NCBI GenBank assembly: GCA_040752695.1
Contig: JBFMGO010000044.1
Span: forward strand, 1-40,507
Origin: a bacterium
GTDB lineage: Bacteria; SZUA-182; DTGQ01
Reading direction: 5' to 3'
Length of the DNA stretch: 40,507 nucleotides
Shown here piece by piece: positions 1-26,486 of the stretch; within the stretch, counting starts at the first letter, position 1, and the number at the start of each line of letters is the position of its first letter. A program made the translations under genes and the position numbers. The notes beneath the pieces are model-generated. The model was not told the origin of the DNA. It ran no database searches and saw only the letters and a list, made by a program, of their open reading frames with translations.

Positions 1-112
1 CTGGGCAAGCGACAAGGCATGTTTAATAAGGAACAAGATATTAAGATGCATAATTTATTCCATGGCTGGCAATGGTGTCGGCTGCATACAGGAGGGGAAA
101 AAATCTGGAGAG

Positions 113-156
113 GGCCTCAACATCTTACCCTCTGATGCGGGGAAGATGTTGAGGCC
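113..156 (-). terminator. Inverted repeat closing the phage-like operon (probable terminator)
   Basis: Perfect 14-bp arms ggcctcaacatctt (113-126) / aagatgttgaggcc (143-156), about 28 nt past the last ORF; a T6 run follows about 9 nt later on the minus strand. Confidence 0.6.
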
Positions 157-183
157 ACCAGGAGAGGTGTCATTCAATTCCAT

Positions 184-510
184 TCAATTCAAACATCTCA
201 AGCAGGGCTTCTGCACATCGGCCCGTATCTTTTGTTCGTGAACAAATCTTTGGACTGTATTTCGAATAGCGTAGGGGTTCATCCCCAGCATTTCGCATAT
301 ACAGCGGAAACTGAATGGATAGCTGTAATTATCGATGGATATCCAGTAGACTGCCGCATCTTTTCCCTCATCAGTAATAATGTCTTGCAGTGCCTGATCC
401 AGGATTGCTTCAGCCAGGGCTTTGATGCCCGATGGTATGGAATTTTGATGAAACTCGAACAGGTATTCTTCTTCAAGCTGAATAGGTTCTGTTACATCGC
501 TCATAGTCAT
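184..510 (-). CDS. Hypothetical small helical protein, possible HTH-type regulator
   Basis: ORF track gives 184..555; ATG at 510 has GGGAG 8 nt upstream. Pattern LAEAILDQALQD...A..WI.....PFSF..ICE.LG..P..IR resembles a recurrent phage/bacterial hypothetical family (recognised from memory). Confidence 0.6.
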   Translation of the reverse strand: MTMSDVTEPIQLEEEYLFEFHQNSIPSGIKALAEAILDQALQDIITDEGKDAAVYWISIDNYSYPFSFRCICEMLGMNPYAIRNTVQRFVHEQKIRADVQKPCLRCLN

Positions 511-554
511 ATTTTTTACTCCCATCCCCCCAAAAAATGAAATTGTTTTATCCA

Positions 555-818
555 TTACGAAGTTTTACGGAAAACAATTTTTTTGCCGGTCTTCAAATCC
601 AGCTTTTTTTGAATATGCCCCCTCCACCATTCCTCGAGCATTTGCTGATCAGCCTCATAGGTGGAATTGCTGTTGCTTCCCCTGGTGATAGGGGCACCCA
701 GGGTAATATACTCTATGACCTTTCTCCATCCGGTACCGAAAAATCCGGCAATTGCCTGTTTGCCTATCAATGGCCGACCCATAGTACCATCTTCCTCCCT
801 TCTTGTTTTCAAAGTCAT
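555..818 (-). CDS. Small winged-HTH DNA-binding protein (lambda gpNu1 DNA-binding domain / excisionase-like)
   Basis: IGKQAIAGFFGTGWRKVIEYITLGAPITRG...D......W fits the Nu1/MerR-like wHTH pattern; alternative start ATG 782. Confidence 0.55.
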   Translation of the reverse strand: MTLKTRREEDGTMGRPLIGKQAIAGFFGTGWRKVIEYITLGAPITRGSNSNSTYEADQQMLEEWWRGHIQKKLDLKTGKKIVFRKTS

Positions 819-842
819 ACGTACTGAACTCTTTCACTTTCT

Positions 843-3056
843 TCAAAAGATACGTGCCCGCACTCTCTGAACCACGGCCGGATCATCCAGGCTTTCAATC
901 ACTTTTTGTCTGATGATCTGTCCATCGACGATTATATCGATGGTAATCTGTCCGGACTCTTTGAGGTCAAGCAGCATGGGGCCAAGAGCCCTGCCCACTT
1001 CCTGGCCGATATCCTGGGCCAGATTCCCGGATGCATTTCCTTCGCCCGCAAGCTGTGCCCCTCCTCCACCTTCCGCCCCTGGGATGGGGGTGTAGCCCCG
1101 GGCGTCCTGCACCCAGGGCATGATTTCGACGCCGGTCCGCACGCCTGCAATTTCAGCACCATAGTCAGTACTTACTCCCTGCAGCCAGGGCAGATAGTGT
1201 GAGGTCATGAAATTAGCATAGGTGGAAAATGCCGCAGGATCAGCAAGGGCGTTTGCGTAGAGTTCATCCTTCAGGCCCTCAAGCCCGGCCATACTCTCGG
1301 CCGGGGCCAGTGAGCCGGTATCAAGGCTCAGCAGGAAGTTATTGACCGGACCGAGAATTGCCTCGGTATTCTGCCCAACTGCCGTTGTGTTGAGACCAAG
1401 GGCCTGGTTAAGCTCCTGAAAGGTTGTATTCAAGGTCTCCCAGATCGGCTCAAAACCATTCAAGGTGCTCGTCAATTCACCAGCCATCTGAGTCAGATAG
1501 CCTTGCACCTGATCGAGGGGCAAGTCCCCGCTCAGGTACTTTTGCAGCACATCACTTATGGCAGGTCTTTCTTCAGTTCCGTAGAATGGCTGAAAGACAA
1601 TGGGCAAAAGCTCCTGCTCAGCGAATCCTTTAATCAGGGATTGCTGCACGCTGCTCAGGATACTTTGCTTGAAATTCTGCTCAAAGGTTTGAAATTCTCC
1701 GGTCTTGAGAGAAGCGGCAAATGCCTGCCCCATACCGGCAGTGACCAGGTCAAAAATTCCGTTGACCTGCTGGTCAAGATCGTTGAAAAATTCATTCCAG
1801 GGTTTTTGACTGTCTTCCGATCCCAGGGCGATTTCTCCCCGCGTAAACCAGCCCGGAATTACGGTTTTGGCAAACTGCTCCAGTTGACTGAAGGTTGCAT
1901 CGTTCATATCCCTATCGGGGTAGATGGACGTGAACAGATCGAATATCGAACTGGACCGTATTCCAGGTCTGCCGACGGGGGAGAAGATGGCCTGGCTAGC
2001 CATCCAGTTTTCGAACTCCTGCATGGCCTGTCCGGCTGGCATGGAAGTGAACTGATTGAATTTCCAGTCCATATATTTTTGAAAACTTTCACGGTCCTGG
2101 CCAAAAGCAAACATGCCAAGATTCTGGCCCATGGTATCCATAAAAACTTTTTTCATTTCTTCCTGAAAGGCCGGGCCGAATACCTCAGAGAGCTGGCCAT
2201 AAGAGCCAAAAGCAACTTTGATCAATCCTTGTGCTGTCTTTTGGTTCAGGATATCCTCAATCGATCTTCCCACACCGCCCAGGCTGAACTCAAAAGAAGG
2301 GATATCCTCTCCTCCCGCTACCAGTGCCAGTTTTCGTACAAAATCCAACTGGCTCTGCCAGACTTCCTCGGCAGCGGCCACGATTCTCTGGTCACGGCCC
2401 ATATTCTGCCAGGTTTCGGCTACACGCTCGATCTGCCCGTCTATGGTCTGCCAGAGCAGATGAAAGGAGGGAATTTCAGGCTCGCACTCGCTCACCTTAT
2501 GCGTAAGTACATCGATAAGACTGTCAGCCATGACCCCAAGATGCCCGGCGATCATGCCAGATTCGATACTTGAGATCAACCCGTTTTCAAACACCGTCTC
2601 GGCAGCGCTGCCAGAGCCGCCCACATCGGTCCAGCCGGCCTGGCCAAACCCTTTGAGCTGGCTGTCCAGCAATATCGGTAAAATGCCGGAAGTGACGGAA
2701 GCATCCAGGAAAGATCCAGATCCCGCCAGCGACCGCTGAAGGGAAATAGTCTGTTGAAGGGATTTTCCTGCCTCGTCCTGGGCCGAAGAGAGCCTCTGCC
2801 ACCTGGTGATCTGGCGCTCGATCTCCAGCGAGCTGAGGGCCGCAGCCAGATCCGCTGCGGCCCCTTTCTGAAGGAAGAGATTCTCGCCTACATCGGCGAG
2901 AGCATTTCGGAGTCTGTTTAGTTTTTCGGCAGTCTCCTCAGTGTGTTTTCCCGTATATTCAATGGCCTGGCCAAGGTCTCTGACCTCTCTGGCTGAAAGC
3001 TTATCTCCAAATAAAAAGTCTAGGACTAACTCACGATTTGCGTCATTCGACATCAT
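843..3056 (-). CDS. Tail tape measure protein
   Basis: 737 aa, helical and A/Q/G/L-rich, directly after the tail tube and chaperones; C-terminal ITIDIIVDGQII beta-strand typical of TMP ends. Confidence 0.7.
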   Translation of the reverse strand: MMSNDANRELVLDFLFGDKLSAREVRDLGQAIEYTGKHTEETAEKLNRLRNALADVGENLFLQKGAAADLAAALSSLEIERQITRWQRLSSAQDEAGKSLQQTISLQRSLAGSGSFLDASVTSGILPILLDSQLKGFGQAGWTDVGGSGSAAETVFENGLISSIESGMIAGHLGVMADSLIDVLTHKVSECEPEIPSFHLLWQTIDGQIERVAETWQNMGRDQRIVAAAEEVWQSQLDFVRKLALVAGGEDIPSFEFSLGGVGRSIEDILNQKTAQGLIKVAFGSYGQLSEVFGPAFQEEMKKVFMDTMGQNLGMFAFGQDRESFQKYMDWKFNQFTSMPAGQAMQEFENWMASQAIFSPVGRPGIRSSSIFDLFTSIYPDRDMNDATFSQLEQFAKTVIPGWFTRGEIALGSEDSQKPWNEFFNDLDQQVNGIFDLVTAGMGQAFAASLKTGEFQTFEQNFKQSILSSVQQSLIKGFAEQELLPIVFQPFYGTEERPAISDVLQKYLSGDLPLDQVQGYLTQMAGELTSTLNGFEPIWETLNTTFQELNQALGLNTTAVGQNTEAILGPVNNFLLSLDTGSLAPAESMAGLEGLKDELYANALADPAAFSTYANFMTSHYLPWLQGVSTDYGAEIAGVRTGVEIMPWVQDARGYTPIPGAEGGGGAQLAGEGNASGNLAQDIGQEVGRALGPMLLDLKESGQITIDIIVDGQIIRQKVIESLDDPAVVQRVRARIF

Positions 3057-3405
3057 GGTCTTGTCTGTTCTCCTTCAGGAACCTTTCCACTCTCTTGATC
3101 TTATAGATAATATCCAGTTGCTCTTGCGCTTCGATATCCATAAGATCCATAATTCTGACCAAAAATCCGTAGTCCAGGTTCCCGCTCAAATCCCCCCTGG
3201 CCTCAAAGCACAGATCATGGACCTCCAGACACGTTTCATTGACCAGAAGAAGCCGTGGCTGTCTCCTGCCCGGATAGCTTGCCTCGCACTCATCACAGGG
3301 CGGAATCCGGTTTTGGCTGTTCAATTTCTTCCGGCACTTCGCACAGTACTTCGGGTTCTCCCCTTTGTCTTTTATGCGCCAGCGCCAGAAGCCGATAAGT
3401 TTTTT
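3043..3405 (-). CDS. Tail assembly chaperone, frameshifted C-terminal part (gpT-like) with CxxC...CxxC
   Basis: The -1 frame from the slippery site reads KLIGFWRWRIKDKGENPKYCAKCRKKLNSQNRIPPCDECE... and continues as ORF 3043..3324, which has only a TTG start. Confidence 0.7.
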   Translation of the reverse strand, partial: KKLIGFWRWRIKDKGENPKYCAKCRKKLNSQNRIPPCDECEASYPGRRQPRLLLVNETCLEVHDLCFEARGDLSGNLDYGFLVRIMDLMDIEAQEQLDIIYKIKRVERFLKENRQDHDVE

Positions 3406-3779
3406 ACCTCTTCCTCCCGAACCTCCGCAGCCCTGGCCTGAGCGTCGAGACAGGCAGCAGCGACCAGGTTGGTGAGAACGGGAAATTGCTCGACCAATAT
3501 TTTTTTATTTTCCTCACTGAACGGAATGCTTTGACCATGGCCATCCTTAAGCTCCCAATCGAGGCAGCAGTTCATGAAAATCATCGGCAAAGCGATATCC
3601 TGATCAAAACTTCTGGTCGAGGTTTCGGCTTCCCTTCGTACCTTGCGAAGCTCGGTTCTGGTCAAGGGTTTGATCTTGACCCGAAAGTGTAGCCCCTCAA
3701 ATTCCGACTTTTCAAAAACCCGGTGGCTGCCGTCGATCCAAACTCCATCTTTTTGATGTAAATCAAGAAAAAGGTCCAT
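3372..3779 (-). CDS. Tail assembly chaperone (gpG-like)
   Basis: Lies between tail tube and TMP; AGGAGGA RBS before ATG 3779; ends EEEVKNL, typical of G/GT chaperones. Confidence 0.75.
   Translation of the reverse strand: MDLFLDLHQKDGVWIDGSHRVFEKSEFEGLHFRVKIKPLTRTELRKVRREAETSTRSFDQDIALPMIFMNCCLDWELKDGHGQSIPFSEENKKILVEQFPVLTNLVAAACLDAQARAAEVREEEVKNLSASGAGA
3399..3405 (-). other. Programmed -1 ribosomal frameshift heptamer A_AAA_AAC
   Basis: GAG GTA AAA AAC TTA gives X XXY YYZ in the correct phase; the -1 frame is open into the next ORF. Confidence 0.75.
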
Positions 3780-3806
3780 AAATCCTCCTTGCAAGAACCT
3801 GTTGTT

Positions 3807-4760
3807 TCACTCATAACTCGGCTGGCTGTTGACCAGCACTACCCGAAAATCACTGGCTTCCTGGGCATCATGATAATAACCGATGAAGCCAAGGTCCAGA
3901 TAGGCTCCTCCAGGGCCGTTAATCGCCGGTGATTCCTGGCTGTACTCAATTTCGTCAGCCAGAAATTCTATGGAATGAGCACCGGCAGTGCAGATCACCG
4001 AGAGCGAGCTTTTGGTATGGTTTCTTCCCTTGGAGATAATGGTATCGGCATCGAACATACCCTTGATTTTACCCTCAAGAGAGGGAGTACCCTCGCCCGC
4101 TATTGTTCCTTCCCCACTGCCAGCCAGACCAAAACCCATGACTGTATTGTTCTGAAAGTTGAAACTGATTTCCTCAAGGGTTTCGATCGGAGTTCCGCCT
4201 TCACTGACGGCAGCATCGCAGTTATGGAATACAGTAACCGGCCTGCTGATATCGGTGGCAGGAGTCTCCTGGTACGAGCTTGAGCTGTACACTTCTCTGG
4301 CACCGATAATCGGCACGGTGTAGCGCAGCTCGCCACGGCCGCCAAAACTGACGCTGAACCCGGTCGCCTTGCAGCCCGAATAGAGATAGTATTTGTTCTC
4401 ATCCGGCCAGCCCTTTTCGATAAGAAACGAAGGTGTATCAGAACCTATCGTGAAGGTGTGCGTATAAGGATCACTGGAGCCGGTCGTAGTCGGCGGCCCG
4501 AAAACCATTTTGAGAATGTAACCGATTGCTGTCAAGTCGATCGGCCCGGTCAAATTACCGGTAACCGACTTGTTTGCGTAGAATGGTCTTCCAGCATGAC
4601 GGCCAGATCCCAGAATAGTTGAGACTTGAGGCTTCTGGTCCACTTTCAGGTCGCAGGTGCTAAATGGCAGCCTGACAGCAACCGGTGAGAGCGGCAGCGT
4701 TTTAAACGCTGTTTCAAAATCCAACAGCAATTGGCTCTTGGCATTGCTTACCCAACCCAT
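3807..4760 (-). CDS. Tail tube (major tail) protein, non-contractile type
   Basis: 317 aa; YTHTF...PSF.IEKG...Y.YSGC pattern, GGAGGAGG RBS, no sheath gene adjacent. Confidence 0.75.
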   Translation of the reverse strand: MGWVSNAKSQLLLDFETAFKTLPLSPVAVRLPFSTCDLKVDQKPQVSTILGSGRHAGRPFYANKSVTGNLTGPIDLTAIGYILKMVFGPPTTTGSSDPYTHTFTIGSDTPSFLIEKGWPDENKYYLYSGCKATGFSVSFGGRGELRYTVPIIGAREVYSSSSYQETPATDISRPVTVFHNCDAAVSEGGTPIETLEEISFNFQNNTVMGFGLAGSGEGTIAGEGTPSLEGKIKGMFDADTIISKGRNHTKSSLSVICTAGAHSIEFLADEIEYSQESPAINGPGGAYLDLGFIGYYHDAQEASDFRVVLVNSQPSYE

Positions 4761-4789
4761 ATCTATTCCTCCTCCTTCCTCTCCCCATG

Positions 4790-5224
4790 CTACCAGTTCT
4801 TGTGTCTGGTATAGGCAAAGGTTATGGTTTTTTTCTGAATCATCTCTTGTTTATCGTCCTTGAGTGACTGGCTGGGATCTTCGGCTATCGGAAAGACATT
4901 CTGCACGCCGGGAAGTTTCTGATCTATCAGACTGGCTACAATATCACCTGACATAGCCAGAACGCCGTGAGTGCCCATGATCGATTCTTCAGGCCTGAGA
5001 ATCCGCTGAAAAACGGTTATCCTTACCTCAGCACACTGGAGGTAATTCCTGGCCAGCATCTGCTCATTCCTGATTGAACCATCTTTGATGGCAATGGCTG
5101 GAAACATGGCGGCAGCCGGAATCTGAGTATCATCACTGGTGATGTAAATATCAATATCGCGTATGTAGCTCAGGTTTGCATCAGCCTGAAGATGTGTTTT
5201 GATTGCTTTCAAAAGCTCTTTCAT
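4790..5224 (-). CDS. Putative tail terminator / head-tail joining protein
   Basis: 144 aa from ATG 5224 (MKELLKAIK); position between adaptor and tube; FPAIAI motif. Confidence 0.55.
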   Translation of the reverse strand: MKELLKAIKTHLQADANLSYIRDIDIYITSDDTQIPAAAMFPAIAIKDGSIRNEQMLARNYLQCAEVRITVFQRILRPEESIMGTHGVLAMSGDIVASLIDQKLPGVQNVFPIAEDPSQSLKDDKQEMIQKKTITFAYTRHKNW

Positions 5225-5252
5225 GATTACCTGTCCTTTTGGTTCCAGCCTT

Positions 5253-5921
5253 CTAATAACGGTCCAGCGTCCCGGAAGACGAATCCGAGATACGGCCCAT
5301 CGTGAAAATCCGGTCAATTTCGCTGCCAGATGCCCTGGGTCCCGGATCATCGTTCGTATCCGGTGCATCAGCTCCCAGATAAGCAATCCCATTGGCTACA
5401 TTTTCCAGGAACCTGACCACGGACTGGTACCGGTCCCGTCTGTCATCAGGTGCTCCCTTACGCCGGGCATAGAGATTGTAGATTGCTATATCTACACTGA
5501 TCTTGCGGACCATTATCGGCACGAGGGCAAAGGGCAGATTCGCGTAACGGGCTGCACAGTAGCTGTCAATCTCTGCATCGGCATCGGCAATGGCCCGCTC
5601 AACCACTGACATGATTATGGTATTCAACTCTATGACCGCAGCTCCGGTGCAGTGAGCCGCGGGCGTGGTCTTATTTACCCCTCGTAGGCAGTAAATCAAC
5701 TGATTGCCGATTTTCCCGGTATAATCAATCTGCTCCAGATCAATTTCGATTCTGCCGGATTCAGGAAAGCCCGAAGCATCAGTGAGGATAATCGTTGTCG
5801 CTGCGGCGCTGATGTCCCCATTCAGGATGCTGGAAGAAAGTACGCTCCTGTCATCGGTCAATTGGATGAGGTCATCCTCTTTGATTTGCTCTCTTAAATC
5901 TGCGAGTGTGCAGTAAGCCAT
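5253..5921 (-). CDS. Mu gp36-like (DUF1320) head-tail adaptor with inserted domain
   Basis: MAYCT..DL.....L.QLTDD...AIADADAEIDSY...RY..LP...DIAIYNLY.RR motifs, interrupted by a ~75-aa insert. Confidence 0.75.
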   Translation of the reverse strand: MAYCTLADLREQIKEDDLIQLTDDRSVLSSSILNGDISAAATTIILTDASGFPESGRIEIDLEQIDYTGKIGNQLIYCLRGVNKTTPAAHCTGAAVIELNTIIMSVVERAIADADAEIDSYCAARYANLPFALVPIMVRKISVDIAIYNLYARRKGAPDDRRDRYQSVVRFLENVANGIAYLGADAPDTNDDPGPRASGSEIDRIFTMGRISDSSSGTLDRY

Positions 5922-5969
5922 ACGTTCTTTCCTTTCGACCAGTGTGGTCAGTGATTCAATGATCAGGGG

Positions 5970-6005
5970 AAGGGGAGATTTCTCTTAAGCTTAAAATCTC
6001 CCCTT
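5970..6005. other. Stem-loop just downstream of the major capsid gene (mRNA stabiliser or partial terminator)
   Basis: 12-bp arms aaggggagattt / aaatctcccctt. Confidence 0.5.
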
Positions 6006-6028
6006 AAGCCCCCTTTTTTGCCCGCTCT

Positions 6029-7009
6029 TTAACTGGCGATAGTGTTGTACCATAGATATCCGAGGTCCGGGCCGGTCTGGGTAATGCAGACGTTCTCCTT
6101 CACTTCGTACACATCCTGATTCTCGGCAGGCTCATTCCAGGTTCTGGTGCTTCGGGGAAGTCCATTCGGATAGGGTACTCTGACCTGATAGCCTGAGCTC
6201 GGGGTCTTCAACCCCGGTACCGGCGGGCGGTAGAAGAGAAAAGCCGAGCCATTGCCAGGGACCTTTTCCCAGATTCTGGCAGCCGTAAACTCGGTGCCTT
6301 CCAGTCTCTCTCTGGCCGAGGAGTAGATCGCTCCGCCGATCAGGACCTCGTCCAGATCGAAGAGCGCTGCGATCAGCTCAGCCGAGATAATGCCGCGCTG
6401 GGTATATTTGATTCTCTCAAGAACCGTGGCTTCCATTTTAAGCTCCTTCAGGGTGTTCGAAGAGAGCAAAAGCACATTCGGCCGAAAGCCGGTATTGCTT
6501 TCAACCCGGTCAATGGCGGTTTCAACGTCACAGATGAAGGTATTGCCCGCTCCGGCAGCCCAGAGACCTCCAGCGTCCTCGCCGCCAGGCAGGTCTGACC
6601 ACGTGCTGTTGAATACGATCTCGGACACCCGGCGTTCCTTTTTCAGATCGATCTTCATAGTACAAAATTCAATGGCATCCTGCTCCGGCTGTAAAGGGGG
6701 AGTGTTTGGCAGTGCAGCTAATTGCCGGTCCTCTTCGGTGACCTCTTTGGCAAAGGCAAACTCCGTGGCGCTGATAGCCACGGTATCTACTTTATAGCCG
6801 CCCCTGGCCGCCTTCGTTCCGGGTGCTCTTATGGCAGCCTCATCGCGAAACCAGTCGCTCTTGAGATATCGGCCGATTTTAGCTTCAGGCGAAGGGCTGT
6901 CAAGGATCGGGAAGACCCGGTCCGCAATATAGGCCCGGTTTCGATAAGCAAGAGAAACATTGGCCAGAGGCCCTGAAACCAATAAACCCCGTACGTTTGG
7001 TTGTCCCAT
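6029..7009 (-). CDS. Major capsid protein (lambda gpE-like family)
   Basis: 326 aa; L.NVSLAYRN..YIAD.VFP start and RAPGT.A.R and G.RPN motifs; position after protease and decoration genes. Confidence 0.8.
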   Translation of the reverse strand: MGQPNVRGLLVSGPLANVSLAYRNRAYIADRVFPILDSPSPEAKIGRYLKSDWFRDEAAIRAPGTKAARGGYKVDTVAISATEFAFAKEVTEEDRQLAALPNTPPLQPEQDAIEFCTMKIDLKKERRVSEIVFNSTWSDLPGGEDAGGLWAAGAGNTFICDVETAIDRVESNTGFRPNVLLLSSNTLKELKMEATVLERIKYTQRGIISAELIAALFDLDEVLIGGAIYSSARERLEGTEFTAARIWEKVPGNGSAFLFYRPPVPGLKTPSSGYQVRVPYPNGLPRSTRTWNEPAENQDVYEVKENVCITQTGPDLGYLWYNTIAS

Positions 7010-7192
7010 GGTTATTATCCTTCCTCTCTTCTTGTGTAGGCAGCGGGCCGCAAGGTATAATAAGGTGCCTGCTCCACTGGTTGTTCACTACTATTGGTTA
7101 CCTAAATAATGAATGGTTTACCCACAATGAATTGATTCTCTCTGGTTATTACTCTGTTCATTACTCTGGTTAATGCTTTTTAAGCACTCTCT

Positions 7193-7963
7193 TTAATAGA
7201 CCATTGTTCCAAGACTGTAGATGGTCGCGTTCGATGCGTCGTTCATAACGCACAGAAATCGCCGGCAGTTGTTCTGAGCAATGGTCATGGTGCCGGACAG
7301 GGTTACGCCGCTGCCGGCAGTTACGGTGATCGTCTCGGCTGCATCGGCGGTGTTGCGGATGATAAACTCAAAGCTCAAACCAGCTATGGTACTGCCGCAT
7401 CCGGCGTCCATGAGAGCGGCTGCGATCTGTGCTCCTGTCGGAGTCAGGTCAGACCGGCTGCTGCCATTGGGATCGCGCAGGATGAGACCGCCGAGGAGCT
7501 GACTCGCGGTATACGTAGCAACATCAGCCGTGTTAATGGATGAAACGCTCGTCCTGCCAATGAAAAGATCTACGCCACGGGGGAAAGGCCCGATAAGCTC
7601 CACGGAGCATATATCACCTTCGGCTCCGGCAGCTTCGAGTACGCGGCCACGCGCATATTTCCAGTTGGCGTCTGCATTCTGGCCCTTACCCGCATCACTG
7701 GCACTTACGTATTCGGGCTTGACGAATGTGCCGAGGCCAAGGCTGGCATTGGCCACCAGTTTGCTCTTGCCAAGCAGCATGACGCTGCCAGCCTGGCCGC
7801 TGGCTGGTGCATCCTGCAGGATGCCAAGGGCCACTTCATTGCTCGAATCCGGTAGTCTGATCTTGCCTGAAGCTGGATCCAGGACCACAAAGTGATACTG
7901 GTAATTCGAGAGGTCTTCTGCCGCCTCAAATGAGAGGCGGAGAACCGAACTTTCTGTGCTCAT
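7193..7963 (-). CDS. Capsid decoration/cement protein (DUF2190-like) with C-terminal extra domain
   Basis: N-terminal ~125 aa (A.EDL...QY.FV...A.GILQ.AP..G....V...G.SK...LEAAGA.GD) typical of the gene before the MCP. Confidence 0.65.
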   Translation of the reverse strand: MSTESSVLRLSFEAAEDLSNYQYHFVVLDPASGKIRLPDSSNEVALGILQDAPASGQAGSVMLLGKSKLVANASLGLGTFVKPEYVSASDAGKGQNADANWKYARGRVLEAAGAEGDICSVELIGPFPRGVDLFIGRTSVSSINTADVATYTASQLLGGLILRDPNGSSRSDLTPTGAQIAAALMDAGCGSTIAGLSFEFIIRNTADAAETITVTAGSGVTLSGTMTIAQNNCRRFLCVMNDASNATIYSLGTMVY

Positions 7964-8061
7964 CTTGCTTTCTCCTTATTCTTACCTGATAAAATACGGG
8001 TTAAGATGCCTGTTAAGATTTTTTAGCAGAGGGAATTTCTCTGGAATTACGAGTCCTTACA

Positions 8062-9381
8062 TTATCTGGCCAGGTGGATTTCCTGCTCATAATCCCTGAC
8101 CAGATCAGGGTTTTCCCTTTGAACTTCGCTAAAAGCGCTCATATAATCGAGCCTTGGGTTATCTTTCATCTTCCTGGTAATCAGGTCGTTCAACTGCTGG
8201 CCTGCGCTGCCTGAGGCAGCGACATTTTTGCTCCTGGTGGCAAACTCGCCGAAATTGATCGTTTTGGGCAGCTCGGTGAGAAAATCACGAAACCACTGAT
8301 ATTGGGTTCCCTTTTTACCCTCTGCAAAATTAAGGGTTTCTTCGGCTCCTAACCCTTCCATAAATTGAGCAAGTCCCAATTTCTCCCAGGCAGGCAAGAT
8401 CTGACCGGAGTGAATACCACTGGTGATAAATTCTCCAATTTCCTTCTTTCTGGCCGATTCTCCATCCTTCCTTCGCTGTTCGGCAAAGTCAGCGGCTGCC
8501 TCCCTGCGGCCCTGCTCTTTGGCATCCTCTATTTTCCTGTCAGCCTCACTGGCGACCTGGTTCAGCCGCTCGGTAAGCTCCATTATGCGCTTTTGCAGCT
8601 TCTCCTCGAATTCAGCGGTAAATCTCTCCTTTTGCTGTTCGAGAAGAGACTGGAGATGTTCCTCTGTGTGTGACATGTTCTGGCTCTCCTTTCCTTCGGT
8701 ATGGTTAATGGTTAATGCCGTTTTGGCTTGTGTGTTATCAACTGCATCTTCCTTGTTTCCTGCGGCGTTCTGATTTCCCTGGTTCAGGGCGGCATCCCGG
8801 CTTCCGGCGGCCTTCTGGTTTCCGGTAGTCTCCTGGCTTCCTGTGGTCTCCCGCTCCCCAGTTGCCACCACCGGGTCCTCGGCAGCAGACAGATTTGCTG
8901 AAAATTGATCACAGATCTTTAATCCCAGGGCATCAGCGAAAAGCATACACCGCTCACCCTCTTCGAATTTGAGATCAGTCAAACCCTTAACAGCCGGTGG
9001 CATTCCGCCCAGGAATCCCACATGGCGCAGGCGGCCATCCGGATAAAAACTGGCCGAGCGCTTCTTGTATAATCCCTGCCTGACAGCCTGAGCAAACTCC
9101 GGCACTACATCCTTGAATTTAGCCATGAGCACATTGATTTTGCTTCCATCCTTGAGCTTTTGGGTGACTTTCCTGAGTGCGCTCACCCAGCCAAAGGCCG
9201 GGGAATTATCCTGGGGATGGCCAACCGTCAGCGGCGGTTCGTGATATTCAGGGTCAAACTGTTCAATGGCCTTATCAATCATTTCATCTCCATCGTGTGC
9301 AAGACCGCGGCTGTCAATTTGTTTGCCGCCGGCAAAGATTGGCACCCAATCATCAAATCCTGAAAGATCCTTATTTACCAT
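8062..9381 (-). CDS. Mu I-like prohead protease/scaffold
   Basis: W..IF..G, P...GHP..NSPAFGWV..L, YKKRSASFY, LRHVGFLG..PPAVKGL; coiled-coil scaffold C-terminus. Confidence 0.85.
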   Translation of the reverse strand: MVNKDLSGFDDWVPIFAGGKQIDSRGLAHDGDEMIDKAIEQFDPEYHEPPLTVGHPQDNSPAFGWVSALRKVTQKLKDGSKINVLMAKFKDVVPEFAQAVRQGLYKKRSASFYPDGRLRHVGFLGGMPPAVKGLTDLKFEEGERCMLFADALGLKICDQFSANLSAAEDPVVATGERETTGSQETTGNQKAAGSRDAALNQGNQNAAGNKEDAVDNTQAKTALTINHTEGKESQNMSHTEEHLQSLLEQQKERFTAEFEEKLQKRIMELTERLNQVASEADRKIEDAKEQGRREAAADFAEQRRKDGESARKKEIGEFITSGIHSGQILPAWEKLGLAQFMEGLGAEETLNFAEGKKGTQYQWFRDFLTELPKTINFGEFATRSKNVAASGSAGQQLNDLITRKMKDNPRLDYMSAFSEVQRENPDLVRDYEQEIHLAR

Positions 9382-9384
9382 CTC

Positions 9385-10644
9385 TTATCCTCCTTTCACG
9401 ATACTGTGTAATTCCGGACTCCCGGCACCCATCACCTCTTCACCCTCAAGGGGCTCTGGCAGGCCATAGGCTTCATAAAAGTATGATTTGGCGATCGGCA
9501 GCCCAATCTCAGCCACTAATGTCTTATCTATCTGGCTGCGGGTGCCAAGATCGGGCTTTTTGCCTGAATGGGTCACCAGGCGGGGGTAGCTGGTCACTCC
9601 CGGAAAATTGAAATCGACAATCCAGGGTATGAGCACTTTGTTCAGATACGCGTCAAGCAGGTCCGCATCCGCCTCGATAATATCCTGCCTGACCTCGTCA
9701 TGAATCTGCGAGGCTGCATACGATCCCCTGCTGCCGACATCGGTAGTCAGGGTCTGGCCAAGTACTGTCTTCGATATTTGCCGGTCGAAGTACTCACAGG
9801 CCGTGACATACGAACCATCTCCCTGCCTGGAGGCTTCCATCAATTCTATGCTCATGGTATCCGGTATAACGATGCCGGTTTCGGTTCTTATGGCGTCGAT
9901 AGCTTCGAGCAGTTTAATCCGCTGCTCCTTGGCCTGGGTCGGATACTTGCCGATGGGTGTAGGCATGCTGAATTTTTCCATAAAGATGACCCAGAACTTG
10001 ATGCCGTGCTTCTTGAACCAGACAGGCCACCAGAGTTTCTGGCCCAGGCCGTTACCATACGGGTTATCGCTGTCGCCATACTGGAAGATAAGGAATTTAC
10101 GGTCCGGAATCGGCTCTCCGTTGACGATAGAGGCGGGGGTCAGCAATCGCGGCTCCCTGTCCAGCGTAAAACAGAACCGTCTTGGATGCTTGCTCATGAA
10201 CCGGTCGATGACAACAGCCCCGTTTTTTATCTTCCAGATAATTTCAGCTCCGTAGTAGCCGTAGAGAATCGCCTGTAAAATTTCAAGGCGCAGTTGGTCG
10301 AAGTTACAATCCATGAGCACGGATTCGACAAACTGAGCAGTCTTAACATCCCGCACATCCCGCCTCTGCCTTCCGACTCTGGGGTGATTCACGGCTTGAG
10401 GCACCACACTCCACTCCTTGCCGACCACAGCCAGATAGCGGGTCTGCAGCACGGAAAAGGCATGTGCATCGCGGCTGATCTCATCGTAGAGTCTGATCCC
10501 CTTGCCCCTGGCCTCGGTAAACAACACAGGATCAGGATTTTCGAGACGGTTGAGCCATCCACCGAAAATATCCAGGTCTTTGCCAGTGGTGGCAATTTCC
10601 TTCTCAATAGGTTTTGATTTCCTTATCACATTTGATTCAGTCAT
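9385..10644 (-). CDS. Portal protein, Mu gp29-like (DUF935)
   Basis: NPYG.GL, W..F.EKF.MP..GKY, ISK..LGQTLTT, GS.AA..IH..VR.DI..AD motifs; GAGGAG RBS before ATG 10644. Confidence 0.9.
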   Translation of the reverse strand: MTESNVIRKSKPIEKEIATTGKDLDIFGGWLNRLENPDPVLFTEARGKGIRLYDEISRDAHAFSVLQTRYLAVVGKEWSVVPQAVNHPRVGRQRRDVRDVKTAQFVESVLMDCNFDQLRLEILQAILYGYYGAEIIWKIKNGAVVIDRFMSKHPRRFCFTLDREPRLLTPASIVNGEPIPDRKFLIFQYGDSDNPYGNGLGQKLWWPVWFKKHGIKFWVIFMEKFSMPTPIGKYPTQAKEQRIKLLEAIDAIRTETGIVIPDTMSIELMEASRQGDGSYVTACEYFDRQISKTVLGQTLTTDVGSRGSYAASQIHDEVRQDIIEADADLLDAYLNKVLIPWIVDFNFPGVTSYPRLVTHSGKKPDLGTRSQIDKTLVAEIGLPIAKSYFYEAYGLPEPLEGEEVMGAGSPELHSIVKGG

Positions 10645-10655
10645 GGGTAACTCCT

Positions 10656-10700
10656 CATGCAACACATGCAACGCATGCAACATATCCAACACATGCAACT
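10656..10700. repeat. 5 x 9-bp tandem repeat (catgcaaca)
   Basis: catgcaaca catgcaacg catgcaaca tatccaaca catgcaact, filling the gap between the TerL stop and the portal RBS. Confidence 0.85.
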
Positions 10701-12334
10701 CAGTAACTGTTCACTGCGCTGACATAATCACACCTTCTTCCGGTGCTCTCAAAATCGAAATAGGTGGTTCGGGTACGAAAGTATCTAAGCGCCATGCTCA
10801 GCATGTCCGCTTGGTCCATAGTCGCCCCAAGCGGAAAATTGCCGATTTCCAGCAGAAAGTCGGAAAGCCAGGGTGCTGACTCGGGCAGCCAGACGTTACC
10901 AGCCTCAATGGCCGGAGTCTCGACTGCCAGTCTGGTGATTTTGTCCGACTCAGGCTCGAAGGGCAAAAGAGGAATCGTCGTCTCCATGGGCAGGTCCTGA
11001 AGCAGTGAAGAACCGGTTGACTTGTCCTCGATCAGGACCACCTGCGGACTGTACTTCTCGGCCAGGGATTTGACCATGCGCTTTCCCTGTGGATAGGTCA
11101 GCCAATCCCGCATGACGTCAATGAGATAATAGCCGGTTTTAGTTCTGACCCAGGTTCCACAGACCCAGGGACAGTTGAGCAATTCATCCGCCTTCTGGGC
11201 AGTGTCCCAGCATTGAATCACCTCAATCCACTGATCCTTGGAAGGGATCACCCGAAAGGTCCGAAACCAGTCGATCCGAACCAGACCACCGCTGGATGGG
11301 ACCGGGCACTGCTGCAATTGCCCGGCTGTACCAAAGGTTCCAAGCACCCTCTTTTGTTCATCAAGCCATTTGCGGTCAAAGCGGGCAGGCCACAGCAATT
11401 CACCCTCATTCTCCCGCGGGTCCTGCACGCCAAGGCTGGTTATGCACTTTCTTCCAGGTTCATACTCCATGGGAAAGCACAGGTGTTCCCAGCCCTCATC
11501 CTTGAGAACATGGCCGGTCAGGTCATCTTCGTGAAGCCGCTGCATAATGATGACAATAGCGGACTTCTTGGGATCATTGAGCCTGGTAAAGAGCTCCTGG
11601 TCGAAAATATCGAGTGTATTCCGGCGCTCCACGTCCGAGAACATGGCCTGTTTGGCATTATGGGGATCATCGATGATCAGGATGTCCCCACCCTCGCCAG
11701 TCACGCCGGAGGTCATGCCGAAGGCCATCCGGCAGCCGGTGCGGTTATTCTCATACCTGGTCTTCTGGTTCTGGTCCGGGGTGAAACGGAAACGTCCACC
11801 CCACCCGGTCTGAAACCACTGGCTGGAGATAATTCGCCTTGACTTCAGACAATCGCGGGTGGCCAGCGCGTCCTTGTGCGATCCGGTCAAAAAGCGCCTG
11901 GTCGGATTTTGCAGCCAAACCCAAACGGGCCACATGACCGACACGATAGTCGATTTTGAGGTCCGGTAGGGCACATTGATCACCAGACGCTGAATATCAC
12001 CCCTGGTCACAGCCTCGAGGTGTTCACAGATCGAGTCGATATGCCAGTTGCCAACAAAAGAACGGCCAGGCTCAACCACATGCCAGGCAGCCTCAATAAA
12101 GGCTCGGAGAGATTTCTCTGCCTTATCATACGTGGCCTCGTCATACATCGCCTGCCCTGAGGCGCAAAGCCAGGGCTCCTGATCCAAGACACCGCAGGAT
12201 CCCTGTTCAACTGCCTTTTTACCCTTTGTCTTCTTTACCTCCTTTTTTACTTTCTTTTCCTCTTTCTGTTTAACTGCCCTTTTTACCTCTTGTTCTACCT
12301 CCTTTTCCGTTTCCCTCTTCTTCATAATCATCAT
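10700..12334 (-). CDS. terL: Terminase large subunit
   Basis: Walker A-like INVPYRTSKST, Walker B ILIIDDPH, MQRLHEDDL, nuclease WDTA, IEDKSTGSSL, DQAD; K/E-rich N-terminal extension. Confidence 0.9.
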   Translation of the reverse strand: MMIMKKRETEKEVEQEVKRAVKQKEEKKVKKEVKKTKGKKAVEQGSCGVLDQEPWLCASGQAMYDEATYDKAEKSLRAFIEAAWHVVEPGRSFVGNWHIDSICEHLEAVTRGDIQRLVINVPYRTSKSTIVSVMWPVWVWLQNPTRRFLTGSHKDALATRDCLKSRRIISSQWFQTGWGGRFRFTPDQNQKTRYENNRTGCRMAFGMTSGVTGEGGDILIIDDPHNAKQAMFSDVERRNTLDIFDQELFTRLNDPKKSAIVIIMQRLHEDDLTGHVLKDEGWEHLCFPMEYEPGRKCITSLGVQDPRENEGELLWPARFDRKWLDEQKRVLGTFGTAGQLQQCPVPSSGGLVRIDWFRTFRVIPSKDQWIEVIQCWDTAQKADELLNCPWVCGTWVRTKTGYYLIDVMRDWLTYPQGKRMVKSLAEKYSPQVVLIEDKSTGSSLLQDLPMETTIPLLPFEPESDKITRLAVETPAIEAGNVWLPESAPWLSDFLLEIGNFPLGATMDQADMLSMALRYFRTRTTYFDFESTGRRCDYVSAVNSY

Positions 12335-12426
12335 CCTCCGTGTTGCTTTTGGGTGGCATAGGTAAAAGACTGCTCATCCTCCCGTTTCTTTTTGTGCACA
12401 GCACATCTTTTTACCGATAAGCCCGT

Positions 12427-12474
12427 AAAACAAAAAAGCCCGGTCAAAACCATTTCTGGTTTCAACCGGGCTTT
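12427..12474 (-). terminator. Intrinsic terminator in the leader of the phage-like operon
   Basis: Minus-strand RNA AAAGCCCGGUUGAAACCA-GAAA-UGGUUUUGACCGGGCUUU forms an 18-bp stem (2 G-U pairs) with a GNRA loop and ends in U6GU4. Confidence 0.8.
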
Positions 12475-12607
12475 CAGTTACGCTTTTGCAAGGAGCGTCT
12501 TTCAGTAACCGATTATTATGAATCTAATCTAATATAATTATATTTATATATTGAAAGTTCAATTTTAAATTAACATCATTTAACTTATTTTTATTAGCTA
12601 CTTCTTT

Positions 12608-12636
12608 AATATATCAAATATCACTCGATGTTTCAA
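12608..12636 (-). promoter_or_regulatory. Sigma70-type promoter facing terL
   Basis: TTGAAA-17 nt-TATATT with an extended TGn, in an AT-rich region. Confidence 0.55.
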
Positions 12637-12793: not shown

Positions 12794-15736
12794 ATGAAAA
12801 CAAATGATTACTCTCCGTCAGAGCTCAAGAGCCTGGTTATTCAGGGTGCCCGTGAGCATAACCTTAAAAATATCGACCTTGAGATCCCCAAGAAAAAGCT
12901 GGTGGTTTTCACCGGGGTAAGTGGTTCCGGCAAGTCTTCCCTGGCCTTCGATACCATCTACGCCGAGGGGCAGCGGCGCTACGTGGAGTCTTTGTCCAGT
13001 TATGCCCGCCAGTTTTTAGGCCAGATGGAAAAGCCGCATTACGATTACATCCGGGGGCTTTCTCCTACCATTGCCATTGAGCAAAAGGCGGCCAGCAAAA
13101 ATCCCCGATCAACCGTAGGCACCCTGACTGAAATCTATGATTACCTGCGGGTGCTCTTCGCCCGGCTTGGCACTCAGTACTGCTACCGTTGCGGAAGGTC
13201 AATCGGTGCCCAGTCCCCGGAGCAAATTGTGGCCGAGGTTTTGCGCCTTCCTCCGAAGACCAGAATTCTGCTGCTGGCCCCTTTAGTGCGGCAGCGGAAA
13301 GGGGAATTTCGCGATCTTCTGGCTGATGTCCAGCACAGCGGCTTTGTCCGGGTCCGGTTGGACAAAGAGGTAATTGAGCTTTCGGAAATTCCAGCCCTGG
13401 ATAAAAAGAAAAAGCATACCATTGAGGTTGTTGTTGACAGGCTGATCATTTCGGATCAGATCAAGGAGCGGCTGACCGATTCGGTCGAGACTGCCCTGCG
13501 GGTAGGCAAGGGGCAGATCGTGGTCTCCTGCCTTGATGGCGGGGGGGCGGGGCTTCAAGCGAGGACAGGGACATCGGACAGCTCTACGGCGGTGTCAGAG
13601 CAGTCGCAGCCAGCCAGTCCCGGCTCCTTTCATGACCTTCCTTTCAGTGAGCACCTGGCCTGTGATGTATGCGGCATCAGCTACCCTGAGCTCTCGCCGC
13701 AGATTTTTTCTTTTAACAGCCCTCTCGGGATGTGTCAGGAGTGCAACGGCCTGGGTACGCGGGCCGAAATAGACGCCAGTCTGATTGTGCCCGACCCTGC
13801 CAAATCCATCAATGGCGGGGCGCTGGAGGCCATCGGCTTTTCCATGAAAAACCAAAAGGGCTGGTCTTATCAGATTTTTTCGGCCATTGCCAGAGAACTT
13901 GGCATTGATCTTGACATACCCTTTAACCAGCTCAGTGAGGAGCATCAAAGGATCGTGCTCTATGGGGCGGGAGAGCGGGAATTCGTGGTCAATTATACCG
14001 GCAAGAAATTCGACCTCGACTATACCACCAGACACGAAGGTGTTATTCCGACCCTTTTGCGCCGCATGAAGCAAACCAGCTCCGAGAGCCAGAAGAGCCG
14101 CTACGAGCAGTACATGAGTGATGCCCTCTGCTCTGCCTGCCAGGGAACAAGGCTCCGCCCTGAGGCTTGTAGCGTGAAGGTTGGAGGCAAGACCCTGCCC
14201 GAACTCACTTCAATGAGCATCGAGCACCTTGACAGATTCTTTAAAACCCTCAAGGTCGAGGGGGAAAGCCGCGCTCTGATCGCAGCCGAACTGGTCAAGG
14301 AACTGCAATCCCGCATACGCTTTTTGCTGAATGTGGGCCTTGGGTACCTGTCCCTTCACAGGGCAGGGCCATCGCTTTCCGGCGGCGAGTCCCAGCGCCT
14401 GCGCCTGGCCAGTCAGATGGGCACAGAGCTTACCGGTGTGCTCTATGTGCTTGATGAGCCCAGCATCGGACTTCACCAGCGGGATAACCGCAAACTTCTC
14501 GATGCATTGTTGCATCTTCGGGACATCGGCAATTCCCTGATCGTGGTCGAACATGACCGCGAGACCATGGAGGCGGCAGACCATATTGTCGATTTTGGCC
14601 CCGGTGCCGGTGTGCACGGAGGTGAGGTCATCTTTTCTGGCTCTCCGGAAAAGATGAAGCAGGACCCCCGTTCCGTAACCGGCCAGTATCTGTCCGGCAG
14701 GAAAGAAATCCCGATCCCCAAAATCCGCAGGTCCGCAAATGAGTGGATCACCATCCGGAGTGCCAGCGAAAACAACCTCAAAGGTATCGATGTTCCGATT
14801 CCCCTTGGAGTTCTGTGCTTCGTGACCGGTGTCTCCGGCGCAGGGAAAAGCAGTCTTATCCGCCAGATTCTCTATCCTTTTGCCGCCAATCACTTGCATG
14901 CTGCCCGGCTTCCGGTGGGCAGACATCAGGGAATCGAGGGGCTGGATCGCCTGGACAAGATCATCAATATCGATCAAAGACCCATTGGCCGTACTCCCCG
15001 CTCCAATCCTGCCACGTATGTCAAGGTCTTCGATCTGATCAGGGAGGTATTTTCCTGGCAGACCGAGGCCAAGATCGCAGGGTACGATAAGGGACGGTTC
15101 AGTTTCAATGTGAAGGGCGGACGGTGCGAGGCCTGCTCCGGTGATGGAATGGTCAAGGTTGAGATGCACTTTCTGCCTGATGTCTATGTGCCGTGCGAGG
15201 TCTGCCACGGTACCCGCTTCAATGAGGCAACCTTACGCATTACCTATAAGGGTAAGAACATTGCCCAGCTTCTCGATTCGACCGTGGAAGAGGCCATGTC
15301 GCTCTTTTCCAATCACCCGAAAATCCTCCGCATTCTGCAAACACTGGCCGATGTAGGACTGGAATATATCAAACTGGGTCAGTCATCAACCACCCTTTCC
15401 GGAGGGGAGGCCCAGAGGATAAAGCTCTCCCGTGAGCTGGCCCGGCTTGATACCGGCAGAACCCTCTACCTGCTGGATGAGCCTACTACTGGGTTACATT
15501 TCGAGGATATCCGCAAGCTCCTCATAGTCCTCAACCGCCTGGTGGATGCTGGCAACAGCGTTCTGGTTATCGAGCATAACCTTGATACCATCAAGACCGC
15601 GGATTACATTATTGACCTCGGCCCTGATGGAGGAGATAAGGGCGGAAGACTGGTGGCAGCCGGAACTCCGGAGGAGGTCTGCCGCGTTCTTGAATCTCCT
15701 ACCGGCCAGGTGCTGAGGCCACTGCTCGGAGGTTAA
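12794..15736 (+). CDS. uvrA: Excinuclease ABC subunit A
   Basis: [33 protein letters not shown], two ABC ATPase domains (LSGGE, LDEP), Zn fingers. Confidence 0.98.
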
Positions 15737-15911: not shown

Positions 15912-16658
15912 TTAATGGGTGTGCGATTTTTCAAAGACCCTGCCGCTGATAATCGAAGAAATCGTACCCTTTTTGAAAACAATATCATACCAAAAGGCCA
16001 GATAGGTATGAACGCAGATAAACAGAACAAATCCCCAGGTCAGGACATGGTGGATGAAACGAACTCCGGCCAAGCCGTTCATCGTGCCTTCCACTGGATA
16101 GAGGACTGCCGAGATGAAGCCGCCCAGTCCAGCCTTGTGGAGCGCTCCGTAAAGGATCAGACCGGTTATGACCACCCCCAAAACCATAATCAAGAGAAAA
16201 CCATAGGCCGCAGATTGCAGGGTTCCATAAAGTCCTGTATGCTCCGGCAATTCGATATCGATGAGGGTGTAAAACTTGATCTGCTTATAAAGATTTTTAA
16301 AGTCAAGCCAGGCGAAAAAATCCTTCCAGTCCGCATGAAAGCGTGAAAAAAAAGCCAGATAGGCGCGCCAGGCAAGAATCGCTGTCAGGATAAAGCCAAA
16401 GAGAAGGTGAACGAAACGCACATCAGCCATGGAAAACTTTTGCCATGTTTCCCCTGCTGCTACGGTAAAGGGCTTGCCGATATACAATCCACTGACAATT
16501 AAAATTACGATACAGACGGCCATAGCCCAATGGTTAATGCACATGGCAACAGACCACTGCTTTCTCGCTATCAGGGATCCTGCCATATTTTTATGCAAGT
16601 CTACTTCTTCGAAATCATGTCGATGTAACTGTTCTTTCATTCTCAACGGTGCTGACAT
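15912..16658 (-). CDS. Ni/Fe-hydrogenase b-type cytochrome subunit, second copy
   Basis: Four hydrophobic helices with heme His in NHW, FVHLLFG, FIHH and CVHTY; close paralog of 17117..17797. Confidence 0.9.
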   Translation of the reverse strand: MSAPLRMKEQLHRHDFEEVDLHKNMAGSLIARKQWSVAMCINHWAMAVCIVILIVSGLYIGKPFTVAAGETWQKFSMADVRFVHLLFGFILTAILAWRAYLAFFSRFHADWKDFFAWLDFKNLYKQIKFYTLIDIELPEHTGLYGTLQSAAYGFLLIMVLGVVITGLILYGALHKAGLGGFISAVLYPVEGTMNGLAGVRFIHHVLTWGFVLFICVHTYLAFWYDIVFKKGTISSIISGRVFEKSHTH

Positions 16659-17797: not shown

Positions 17798-17814
17798 ACC
17801 TGATCTTCCTTTCT

Positions 17815-22939: not shown

Positions 22940-23363
22940 GCCTACAGGAAGTAGAGAAAAACATGTCTACCTTATTAATCGAAATATCAGTGTTATTTCT
23001 TCGCTATTTTTTTGCTGCTTTACAGCTATTTATATGTAAATTACAACCATATTTTCCTTCGTCACAGAGAATGTACAAGTTGCAGAAACAAAACACCCAT
23101 AGTAGCCATACGGCAGGAAATCTCTCTTCTCGTTGTGGGGCCTTCAAGGCAGTCTCAATAATACTTAAAATTGATGTTTAATTTACAGTAATTTAGTCCT
23201 TTTTTGCCTATACAGTAATAAATTGAAATGAGAATAACCGATTCTGGATAAGATTGGTGGAAAATCACTACCTTTTATAGGGCAAGCACTTTGGTCAGGG
23301 ATAACTATTTCAGTCGGCAAGAGTACATTATGTGAAAATAGCTGGATAGTGCAGGAGAAATTC

Positions 23364-26423: not shown

Positions 26424-26486
26424 GTTGTTGAGGGTGTTCAAGATTACATTAATAGTCCAGTGGTGTTCAGCGAGGAGCGAGAGATT

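Follow-up and report, generated by a model that had tools for sequence, protein, structure and literature searches.

A candidate two-locus, gene transfer agent-like virion system derived from Mu-portal-family phages in an uncultured bacterial genus

We describe a virion-protein operon in a window of 40,507 nucleotides, which is the entire contig C44 of a bacterial genome assembly (GCA_040752695.1, here G000; 6.05 Mb, 239 contigs). Positions 113–12636 of the window are one minus-strand operon, running from a promoter to a hairpin, with genes for the large terminase (TerL), the head and the tail shaft. Scans of its 13 open reading frames (ORFs) against Pfam and PHROG found no integrase, transposase, repressor, replication, small terminase (TerS), MuF or tail-tip family. 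A new finding of this follow-up is that a pair of tail-tip genes stands alone among host genes, at a separate locus, in all three genomes compared. To judge from the comparisons below, the operon is probably in use for making virus-like particles. That operon and tip locus form a domesticated system resembling a gene transfer agent (GTA), switched on by terminator read-through, has in our estimate an even chance of being right. It is a good candidate from the comparative genomics of metagenome-assembled genomes (MAGs) of one genus, rather than a demonstrated system.

To our knowledge, few independent domestications of phages into GTAs are known, and mechanistic work on them is almost all on the alphaproteobacterial type. 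Our literature searches, which were not exhaustive, found no report of a GTA with this gene set or from this lineage. If the proposal holds, this would be a second, independent example of a virion module that was cut down, split and placed under cellular control. The candidate differs by its phage lineage and its uncultured host, and has a delimited operon, a separate tip locus and a putative promoter-plus-terminator switch. Its apparent lack of TerS bears on how such particles package any DNA.

Three species of one genus, G000, G001 and G002, were compared; the L-numbered loci below are contig stretches from these genomes or from other sources. By RecA, the closest named genera are Geomonas and Geotalea at 73–74% identity, and matches at 80% or more were all without a genus name.

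Distribution, divergence and selection

The original prediction for this DNA was a GTA or other domesticated virion operon built on a Mu-like head, and it listed presence in a single strain and relaxed selection as findings that would speak against it. The cluster is present in all three species. Close matches to its major capsid protein (MCP; 88–91% identity) occur in both other species of the genus and in none of three other genera of the family (completeness 76, 95 and 91%); over the whole search 6 of 61 genomes matched, three of these at 24–31% only. All 13 proteins are colinear in both sister species. At least three further metagenome lineages (L081, L082 and L085) carry the cluster at 77–90% nucleotide identity, with the same gene order wherever the contigs reach.

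Nor is selection relaxed. The ratio of nonsynonymous to synonymous divergence (dN/dS) is 0.048–0.258 in 25 of 26 comparisons (13 genes against two species; one with saturated dS). In a host set of seven genes (uvrA, recA, lexA, two hydrogenase subunits, cytochrome b and HycI) it is 0.046–0.198 in 13 of 14. Against G002, dS spans 0.65–1.75 for the cluster and 1.05–1.97 for the host genes, with nucleotide identities of 73–83% and 76–80%. All 13 genes are under purifying selection at a host-like divergence, and this excludes a freely decaying remnant. The data fit, without proving, co-divergence of the cluster with its host. The codon comparison that had been suggested gave a host-like value for the cluster (r 0.94), but it does not discriminate because a resident prophage scores alike (r 0.93).

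The conserved unit and its surroundings

Homology between lineages sets in sharply about 10 nt upstream of the −35 element of the promoter and stops at the last stop codon, each lineage having its own hairpin. The conserved unit is therefore the bare operon, without element ends. This agrees with the claim of a single operon of about 12 kb from a promoter and leader (promoter at 12636–12608) to a hairpin (113–160).

The claim of a non-autonomous gene set between host genes has also stood. In G002 the cluster lies mid-contig, at 103–116 kb of a 286-kb contig. One flank has DnaK/GrpE/DnaJ-like and TPR genes; the other has radical-SAM, Dus and VapBC genes, with uvrA 5.4 kb off. In L083, a G001-type contig of 55.7 kb, a sulfatase-TPR gene lies on one side and beta-helix/dockerin genes on the other, and in L081 an AAA_5 ATPase lies upstream. 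In the window, uvrA (12794–15736, plus strand) is divergent from the operon and NiFe-hydrogenase genes come next. In G001 uvrA is located elsewhere, beside hydrogenase. The expected synteny with uvrA is thus partial: adjacent in G000 and close by in G002, but not in the G001 neighbourhood.

Prophage genes to the left of the operon would have counted against the original prediction. Contig C68 ends in the 152 nt with which C44 begins, apart from one mismatch inside the hairpin. The last 20 kb of C68 hold a multihaem cytochrome, PAS histidine kinases, a sigma-54 regulator and an M48 peptidase. As C44 overlaps a contig that ends in host genes, there is no prophage DNA left of the operon.

The G000 and G001 assemblies break just past the operon at strong hairpins or palindromic repeats (window 1–160; L083:17020–17200; the start of contig C133 in G001). 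A 31-nt overlap joins the start of C68 to the start of C74, the contig with the G000 tip locus. The overlaps hint at the order C74(reversed)–C68–C44, which would place the tip locus about 61 kb from the operon.

Gene content of the operon

The 13 ORFs of the window's ORF listing run uninterrupted on the minus strand from 12334 down to 184, and a Shine–Dalgarno-like motif is found at 11 of 12 starts. The features are as follows; values after family names are E-values.

12608..12636, minus strand: sigma-70-type promoter, TTGAAA-17-TATATT, TG-extended (consensus scan)
12419..12518, minus strand: conserved leader with invariant CGGTTACTGAAAGACGC, a small hairpin, a 19-pair intrinsic terminator and a T run
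10700..12334, minus strand: TerL (phrog_38, 1.5e-86; Terminase_6C, 1.4e-10; dN/dS 0.05–0.08)
9385..10698, minus strand: Mu-type portal (PF06074, Portal_Mu, 2.4e-104; phrog_113; dN/dS 0.06–0.09)
8062..9381, minus strand: prohead protease (phrog_976, 4.2e-60; dN/dS 0.09–0.12)
7193..7963, minus strand: scaffold (phrog_673, 'head scaffolding', 7.2e-50)
6029..7009, minus strand: MCP (phrog_1005, 5.4e-64; dN/dS 0.06)
5253..5921, minus strand: head-tail adaptor (Mu gp36, PF07030, 9.4e-32; phrog_195, 3e-34)
4790..5224, minus strand: tail-terminator-like protein, 144 aa (weak matches: Phage_tail_terminator_7, 0.05; phrog_3907, 0.025)
3807..4760, minus strand: tail tube (Phage_tube_2, PF18906, 9.4e-33; 69% identity to the tube of the C85 prophage)
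3372..3794, minus strand: tail assembly chaperone G (phrog_313, 5e-6)
3043..3504, minus strand, −1 frame: T part of the chaperone (the frame of ORF 3043–3324 is open back to 3504)
843..3056, minus strand: tape measure, 737 aa (by position after G/GT; phrog_167, faint, 0.007)
555..818, minus strand: small conserved protein, 75 aa from the ATG at 782 (dN/dS 0.19–0.25)
184..555, minus strand: small conserved helical protein, 108 aa from the ATG at 510 (alignment of lineages; model pLDDT 78)
113..160, minus strand: closing hairpin followed by a T run (−36.9 kcal/mol; the assembly breaks here too)

The conserved TerL start is probably the ATG at 12325, and no ORF lies between the leader and TerL. 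By family assignment the head is mixed. The expected Mu-like head holds for the gp36 adaptor and the portal, both of Mu families; MCP, protease and scaffold fall in a different family (phrog_1005/976/673), one that accompanies a Mu portal and MuF in prophages of many anaerobes. TerL is of phrog_38, and MuF is missing. The gp36 domain of the adaptor covers residues 100–190, its N-terminal 100 aa having no family assignment. The ORF at 7193–7963 had been labelled a decoration protein. We replace this label with scaffold, as its match to Phage_cement_2 (E 0.008) falls under the family cut-off.

Among the tail labels, that of the G/GT chaperone is supported. A slippery site, A AAA AAC at 3405–3399, is phased correctly for a −1 shift and is kept in five cluster lineages and in the C85 prophage, and these features of the sequence indicate that the G/GT arrangement is real. 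The tape-measure label has a faint family match, but the protein is 56% identical over 557 aa, to the C-terminus, with the 854-aa protein in the tape-measure position of C85. For the tail terminator, the listed ORF (4790–5392) begins too early, conservation being limited to residues 57–200. The protein encoded at 4790–5224 is 50% identical to that of the gene preceding the tube gene in C85, and with its weak family matches we call it, with reserve, terminator-like.

The last two genes are small. The first 60 aa of the ORF at 555–818 are almost invariant across five lineages, and its atlas neighbours are phage and HTH_17-like clusters, which we take as a lead only. It is probably an HTH_17/excisionase-like DNA binder, as predicted from sequence; its structure model is poor (pLDDT 52) and unsuited to a fold search. 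The ORF at 184–555 matched no Pfam or PHROG family. Its model gave no Foldseek match at E ≤ 0.001, and VIA-align Z-scores up to 5.7 are helical-bundle noise. In G000, contig C144 (L014:11982–12266, L014:8294–8854) has a 41% homologue of this ORF after a tail-fibre-like gene. In another ORF of C144 a 57-aa stretch has 56% identity to the C-terminus of the window protease, and the contig also bears DnaB-like and other replication genes.

There are long gaps inside the operon, of 107 nt between capsid and adaptor and of 183 nt between scaffold and capsid (7010–7192). Within the former lies the sole Rfam match at E ≤ 1, to the Clostridiales-2 RNA (5928–6019, minus strand); it is sub-threshold, with 23 bits against a gathering score of 58.6. 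Between adaptor and terminator-like gene, a 93-aa ORF without a family match is found in G002 and in G001/L083 (L008:10472–10753, minus strand; L010:5144–5425, minus strand). At this place one would expect a head-closure (stopper) gene. A search for a neck-gene remnant in this interval found no similarity (E ≥ 0.13). MuF (PF04233) is not on C44 and was found on C85, C185 and C189.

Tail-tip loci and resident prophages

The search for an unlinked tail-tip locus, advised by the original prediction, was successful in all three genomes. Its starting point is contig C85 of G000 (L012, L013), a near-complete siphovirus prophage of the Mu-portal family with a counterpart in G002 (contig C9). The prophage has genes for Ant, amidase, TerS, TerL, portal, MuF, protease, decoration, gpT-type capsid and neck proteins, followed by those for tube, G/GT, tape measure, tip and a methyltransferase. 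Compared with the window proteins, the prophage tube has 69% identity, the chaperone 79% and the tape measure 56%. After the tape measure the prophage encodes a 139-aa protein and then a 1153-aa J-like hub/fibre protein (Phage-tail_3, phrog_31). Homologues of just these two genes form the orphan loci:

G000, contig C74: divergent from lexA
G002, contig C33: after an iron ABC/TonB operon
G001, contig C135: after a GH15 gene

The tip genes have a dN/dS of about 0.1. Copies of the tube gene and of the 139-aa gene are balanced, at 2:2, 2:2 and 1:1 in the three genomes, and from this we infer a link between the orphan tips and the operon. Over its first 230 aa, J is 74% identical between the orphans of G000 and G002 and 51–64% identical in other pairs, and a non-coding block upstream of the orphan tips is common to G000 and G002. 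Searches of PDB sequences gave none at E ≤ 1 for the J protein and chance-level matches only (E ≥ 0.57) for the 139-aa protein.

In G001 there is a single Terminase_6C gene and a single Portal_Mu gene, both in the cluster, and no MuF was found. A transposable Mu-like prophage is present in G000 on contigs C120 and C189 (L016, L015), with MuA-like, MuB-like, Gam, endolysin, phrog_38 TerL, gp36, portal and MuF genes. Its contig has a repeat of about 125 nt at both ends that is common to many other contig ends.

Promoter, leader and terminator

The promoter block AAAAATAATACTTGAAA..TGATATTTGATATATTAAA is kept in four lineages. Downstream of it, a leader block of about 95 nt is much better conserved than the coding DNA, and its terminator stem (12475–12434) lies about 100 nt ahead of the TerL start. 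A covariance model of the leader (R1) scores five cluster lineages at 99–108 bits. Each genome of the three species has a single match, and at E < 0.1 there is no other in these genomes or in 38 other Mu-like loci. The idea of a leader regulon was dropped, blastn and R1 giving only one copy per genome. Rfam has no family for the leader, and none of its 25 pairs has compensatory changes, because the sequences are too alike.

We also considered SOS control. The lexA promoters of the three species (G000 C74 27764–28138, that is L026:15760–16140; L087; L088) share a palindrome, TACCACTC-N4-GAGTGGTA, between the −35 (TTGACA) and −10 (TATTTT) elements. At up to one mismatch per half-site it occurs eight times in the genome, and only the lexA copy is free of mismatches. 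The palindrome probably serves this lineage as LexA operator, a prediction from sequence, and is presumably unlike the classical LexA boxes. The lexA-type palindrome is not in the cluster, the tip promoters or the sister-species loci, and SOS control of the cluster was rejected. Although the tip loci of G002 and G001 are not beside lexA, their upstream regions have a GTCAAGAG..AAAA block matching the lexA −35 region. A 15-nt block upstream of the tip genes was set aside, having 18 genome matches at up to two mismatches and no interpretable pattern.

Origin of the operon

The MCP belongs to a family of 838 proteins at E ≤ 1e-10 among 6590 candidates, with about 60% identity and a length of 325±2 aa. 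Prophage-like loci with members of this family are known from Thermodesulfobacteriota, Nitrospirota, Planctomycetota, Chloroflexota and other groups. The closest MCPs from phages have 25–33% identity to that of the window. A tree of 29 capsid proteins, excluding loci under 50% identity and the partial L084 and L085, places the reduced clusters in one clade (support 99/95). The sister of this clade (100/100) is L030, a fragment from IMG/VR in which a neck gene is retained. A single clade with a neck-bearing sister makes the cluster a once-reduced derivative of a phage family.

Mu-portal siphovirus prophages of anaerobes (C85; L031–L052) resemble the operon in their protease, scaffold and MCP families (MCP 52–64%), Mu portal and gp36. 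Among the 22 loci with 52–64% MCP identity, a MuF-like gene follows the portal in 18; the others are L040, L044, L046 and L050, the last being too short to tell (2,353 nt). None of the 22 matches the window tape measure or its two small ORFs. Unlike these prophages, the window operon has no MuF, neck1 or TerS and its TerL is of another family (phrog_38). C85 further shares the tube, G/GT and tape-measure module at 56–79% identity, and unlike the window it continues with tip genes, lysis genes, TerS and Ant.

Discussion

We hypothesize that an ancestral siphovirus operon was stripped of its autonomy genes and retained by the host lineage. That the operon is such a remainder, a single late-type operon of a Mu-portal-family siphovirus kept by the host, is a claim we hold in the balance. 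The two loci would jointly build DNA-filled tailed particles for the host, like a multi-locus GTA. Because the promoter is near consensus, we place the putative switch at read-through of the leader terminator, through antitermination by some factor. As no TerS was found, we propose that TerL may package DNA without site specificity. GTA particles by definition hold essentially random host DNA and are unable to pass on the full set of their own genes; here the separation into two loci would stand in the way of self-transfer, provided that they lie far from each other. The fullest version of the proposal, an independent two-locus GTA of Mu-portal-family origin with TerL packaging without TerS and antitermination at a unique leader RNA, is more doubtful, and we offer it tentatively.

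A number of observations weigh against our proposal. All sources of the cluster are MAGs or metagenome contigs of one genus, and it is known from that genus only. Its host flanks are different in every lineage, and purifying selection would also act on an element with horizontal spread or with a helper phage to complete it. The family scans of the cluster found no TerS, although small terminases are hard to detect by sequence, and in G001 none was found with the C85 TerS as query. MuF and a neck1/stopper gene are also missing from the cluster; the 93-aa ORF in the stopper position is absent from G000 (window ~5224–5253), L082 and L085. No lysis family was found among the 13 ORFs by the family scans, no search aimed at lysis genes having been made. 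In G001 the J gene is interrupted by about 1.5 kb of inserted DNA (L029:2141–3669, C135), an insertion sequence with 18-bp terminal inverted repeats and a DDE_Tnp_1 fragment inside. The pairing of operon and tip locus rests on copy balance, not phylogeny, because the orphan copies of the 139-aa protein resemble one another about as much as they resemble the prophage copies. If the head is of Mu size, it could hold the whole 12-kb operon, unlike the classic small-headed GTAs.

A rival reading is that the operon is a helper-dependent element, expressed and completed only upon induction of, or infection by, a related Mu-like siphovirus of the C85 or G002:C9 type. An antiterminator, TerS, lysis functions and possibly also the tail tip would come from that phage. 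In this case the operon would be a structural parasite, drawing packaging towards its own heads, or else a decoy for interference or defence. We regard this as unlikely, though likelier than the other rivals. G000 and G002 each hold a fuller prophage with a related tube (57–69%), chaperone (73–79%) and tape measure (56%) and the same slippery site. The resident prophage has TerS, amidase, MuF, neck and tip genes, and the tip genes show mixed relationships with its copies; a near-consensus promoter followed by a terminator is a layout that an incoming antiterminator could exploit. However, without integrase, replication genes, regulator or conserved ends the cluster has no visible route of mobilisation, and its genes are nearer to their sister-species orthologues than to the co-resident prophage. 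The leader has no homologue at E < 0.1 in the 38 other Mu-like loci or elsewhere in the three genomes, and G001 shows no other Mu-like TerL, portal, MuF or TerS, though MAGs can lose prophage contigs.

The gene losses could also be read as those of a defective, functionless prophage remnant, intact by chance or recent loss, with orphan tips that are debris of other prophages. In favour of this are the genes not found in the cluster by the family scans (TerS, MuF, neck, tip and lysis), the 93-aa ORF that comes and goes among lineages, the broken J gene of G001 and the flanks rearranged in every lineage. Yet 13 ORFs have stayed open across a dS of about 1 in at least three species, with dN/dS of 0.05–0.26 in the range of uvrA, recA and hydrogenase; promoter, leader and frameshift site are all conserved, and the unit boundaries are identical across lineages. 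We find a remnant improbable. The differing flanks (G000, G002, L081 and G001/L083) would also be explained by a mini-Mu, a Mu derivative that cannot transpose by itself and depends on the transposase of a resident Mu-like phage, and the genome does have such a prophage with MuA, MuB and Gam (C120). The homology nevertheless ends at the last stop codon with no conserved terminal sequence or inverted ends seen, and divergence tracks the host genes, leaving this reading with very little probability. Hardly credible at all is an assembly artefact, a complete prophage cut by contig ends. The window is indeed a whole contig that begins 113 nt past the operon, and the G001 contig too begins 120 nt past it. 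But G002 and L083 have host genes on both sides of the operon within contigs of 286 and 55.7 kb, the start of C44 overlaps the host-gene contig C68, and the contig breaks coincide with hairpins.

Our proposal of a domesticated GTA-like system can be compared with known systems. Like RcGTA and CcGTA, the candidate has a 12–15-kb operon from head to tape measure without replication, integration or lysogeny genes, here with host genes on its flanks in G000, G002 and L083. Host inheritance and purifying selection are also common to them; the cluster was found in three of three species and forms one clade, one genus having been sampled. A further likeness, if the orphan tips belong to the operon, would be the placing of structural genes at other loci. 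The RcGTA 'genome' is described as spread over five loci, with phage-mediated exchange at its host-recognition loci (PMC5026251). Control of the Caulobacter GTA cluster is reported to combine activation with antitermination (PMC11150451); read-through is proposed for the candidate.

The differences are considerable. As a set the genes are not homologous: the RcGTA-like family has an HK97-type portal, capsid and tail set, and the window operon has the Mu portal PF06074, a gp36 adaptor and a phrog_1005 MCP. The whole tail tip is unlinked here, not just fibres or spikes, the range is one genus rather than an order, and the system is known from its genes alone. No TerS was found here, whereas known GTAs have, according to a review, a putative TerS lacking the DNA-binding domain (PMC11841831).

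Other classes of element fit less well. A transposable Mu-like prophage has MuA/MuB and Mu ends, and no transposase was found in the cluster or its flanks. Integrase, regulators and a replication module are typical of phage satellites, which borrow whole tails. Capsid-forming phage-inducible chromosomal islands (PICIs) and satellites resemble the cluster as a compact head and packaging set that needs virion parts from elsewhere. Unlike satellites (P4, PICI, cf-PICI), the cluster and its examined flanks have no integrase, master regulator or replication genes; the cluster also encodes its own tail shaft and diverges like the host. PBSX-type elements are likewise chromosomal, non-infectious phage derivatives kept by the host. 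They keep regulation, complete tails and lysis in one locus, whereas here the tip is unlinked and no regulator or lysis genes were found in the cluster.

Other features of the window

Beyond the operon and uvrA, the window holds three consecutive ORFs of 1024, 1087 and 1020 aa (23349–32836, plus strand) with no Pfam family at E ≤ 1e-5. They are paralogues, with 46–57% identity over the C-terminal ~320–430 aa and about 32% in the N-terminal parts, and there are weaker DNA matches in both sister species. Two cytochrome-b561-type (Ni_hydr_CYTB) genes (15912–16658 and 17117–17818, minus strand) lie around a 460-nt gap. This pair adjoins the NiFe hydrogenase operon, which encodes the large subunit, the small subunit and the HycI protease.

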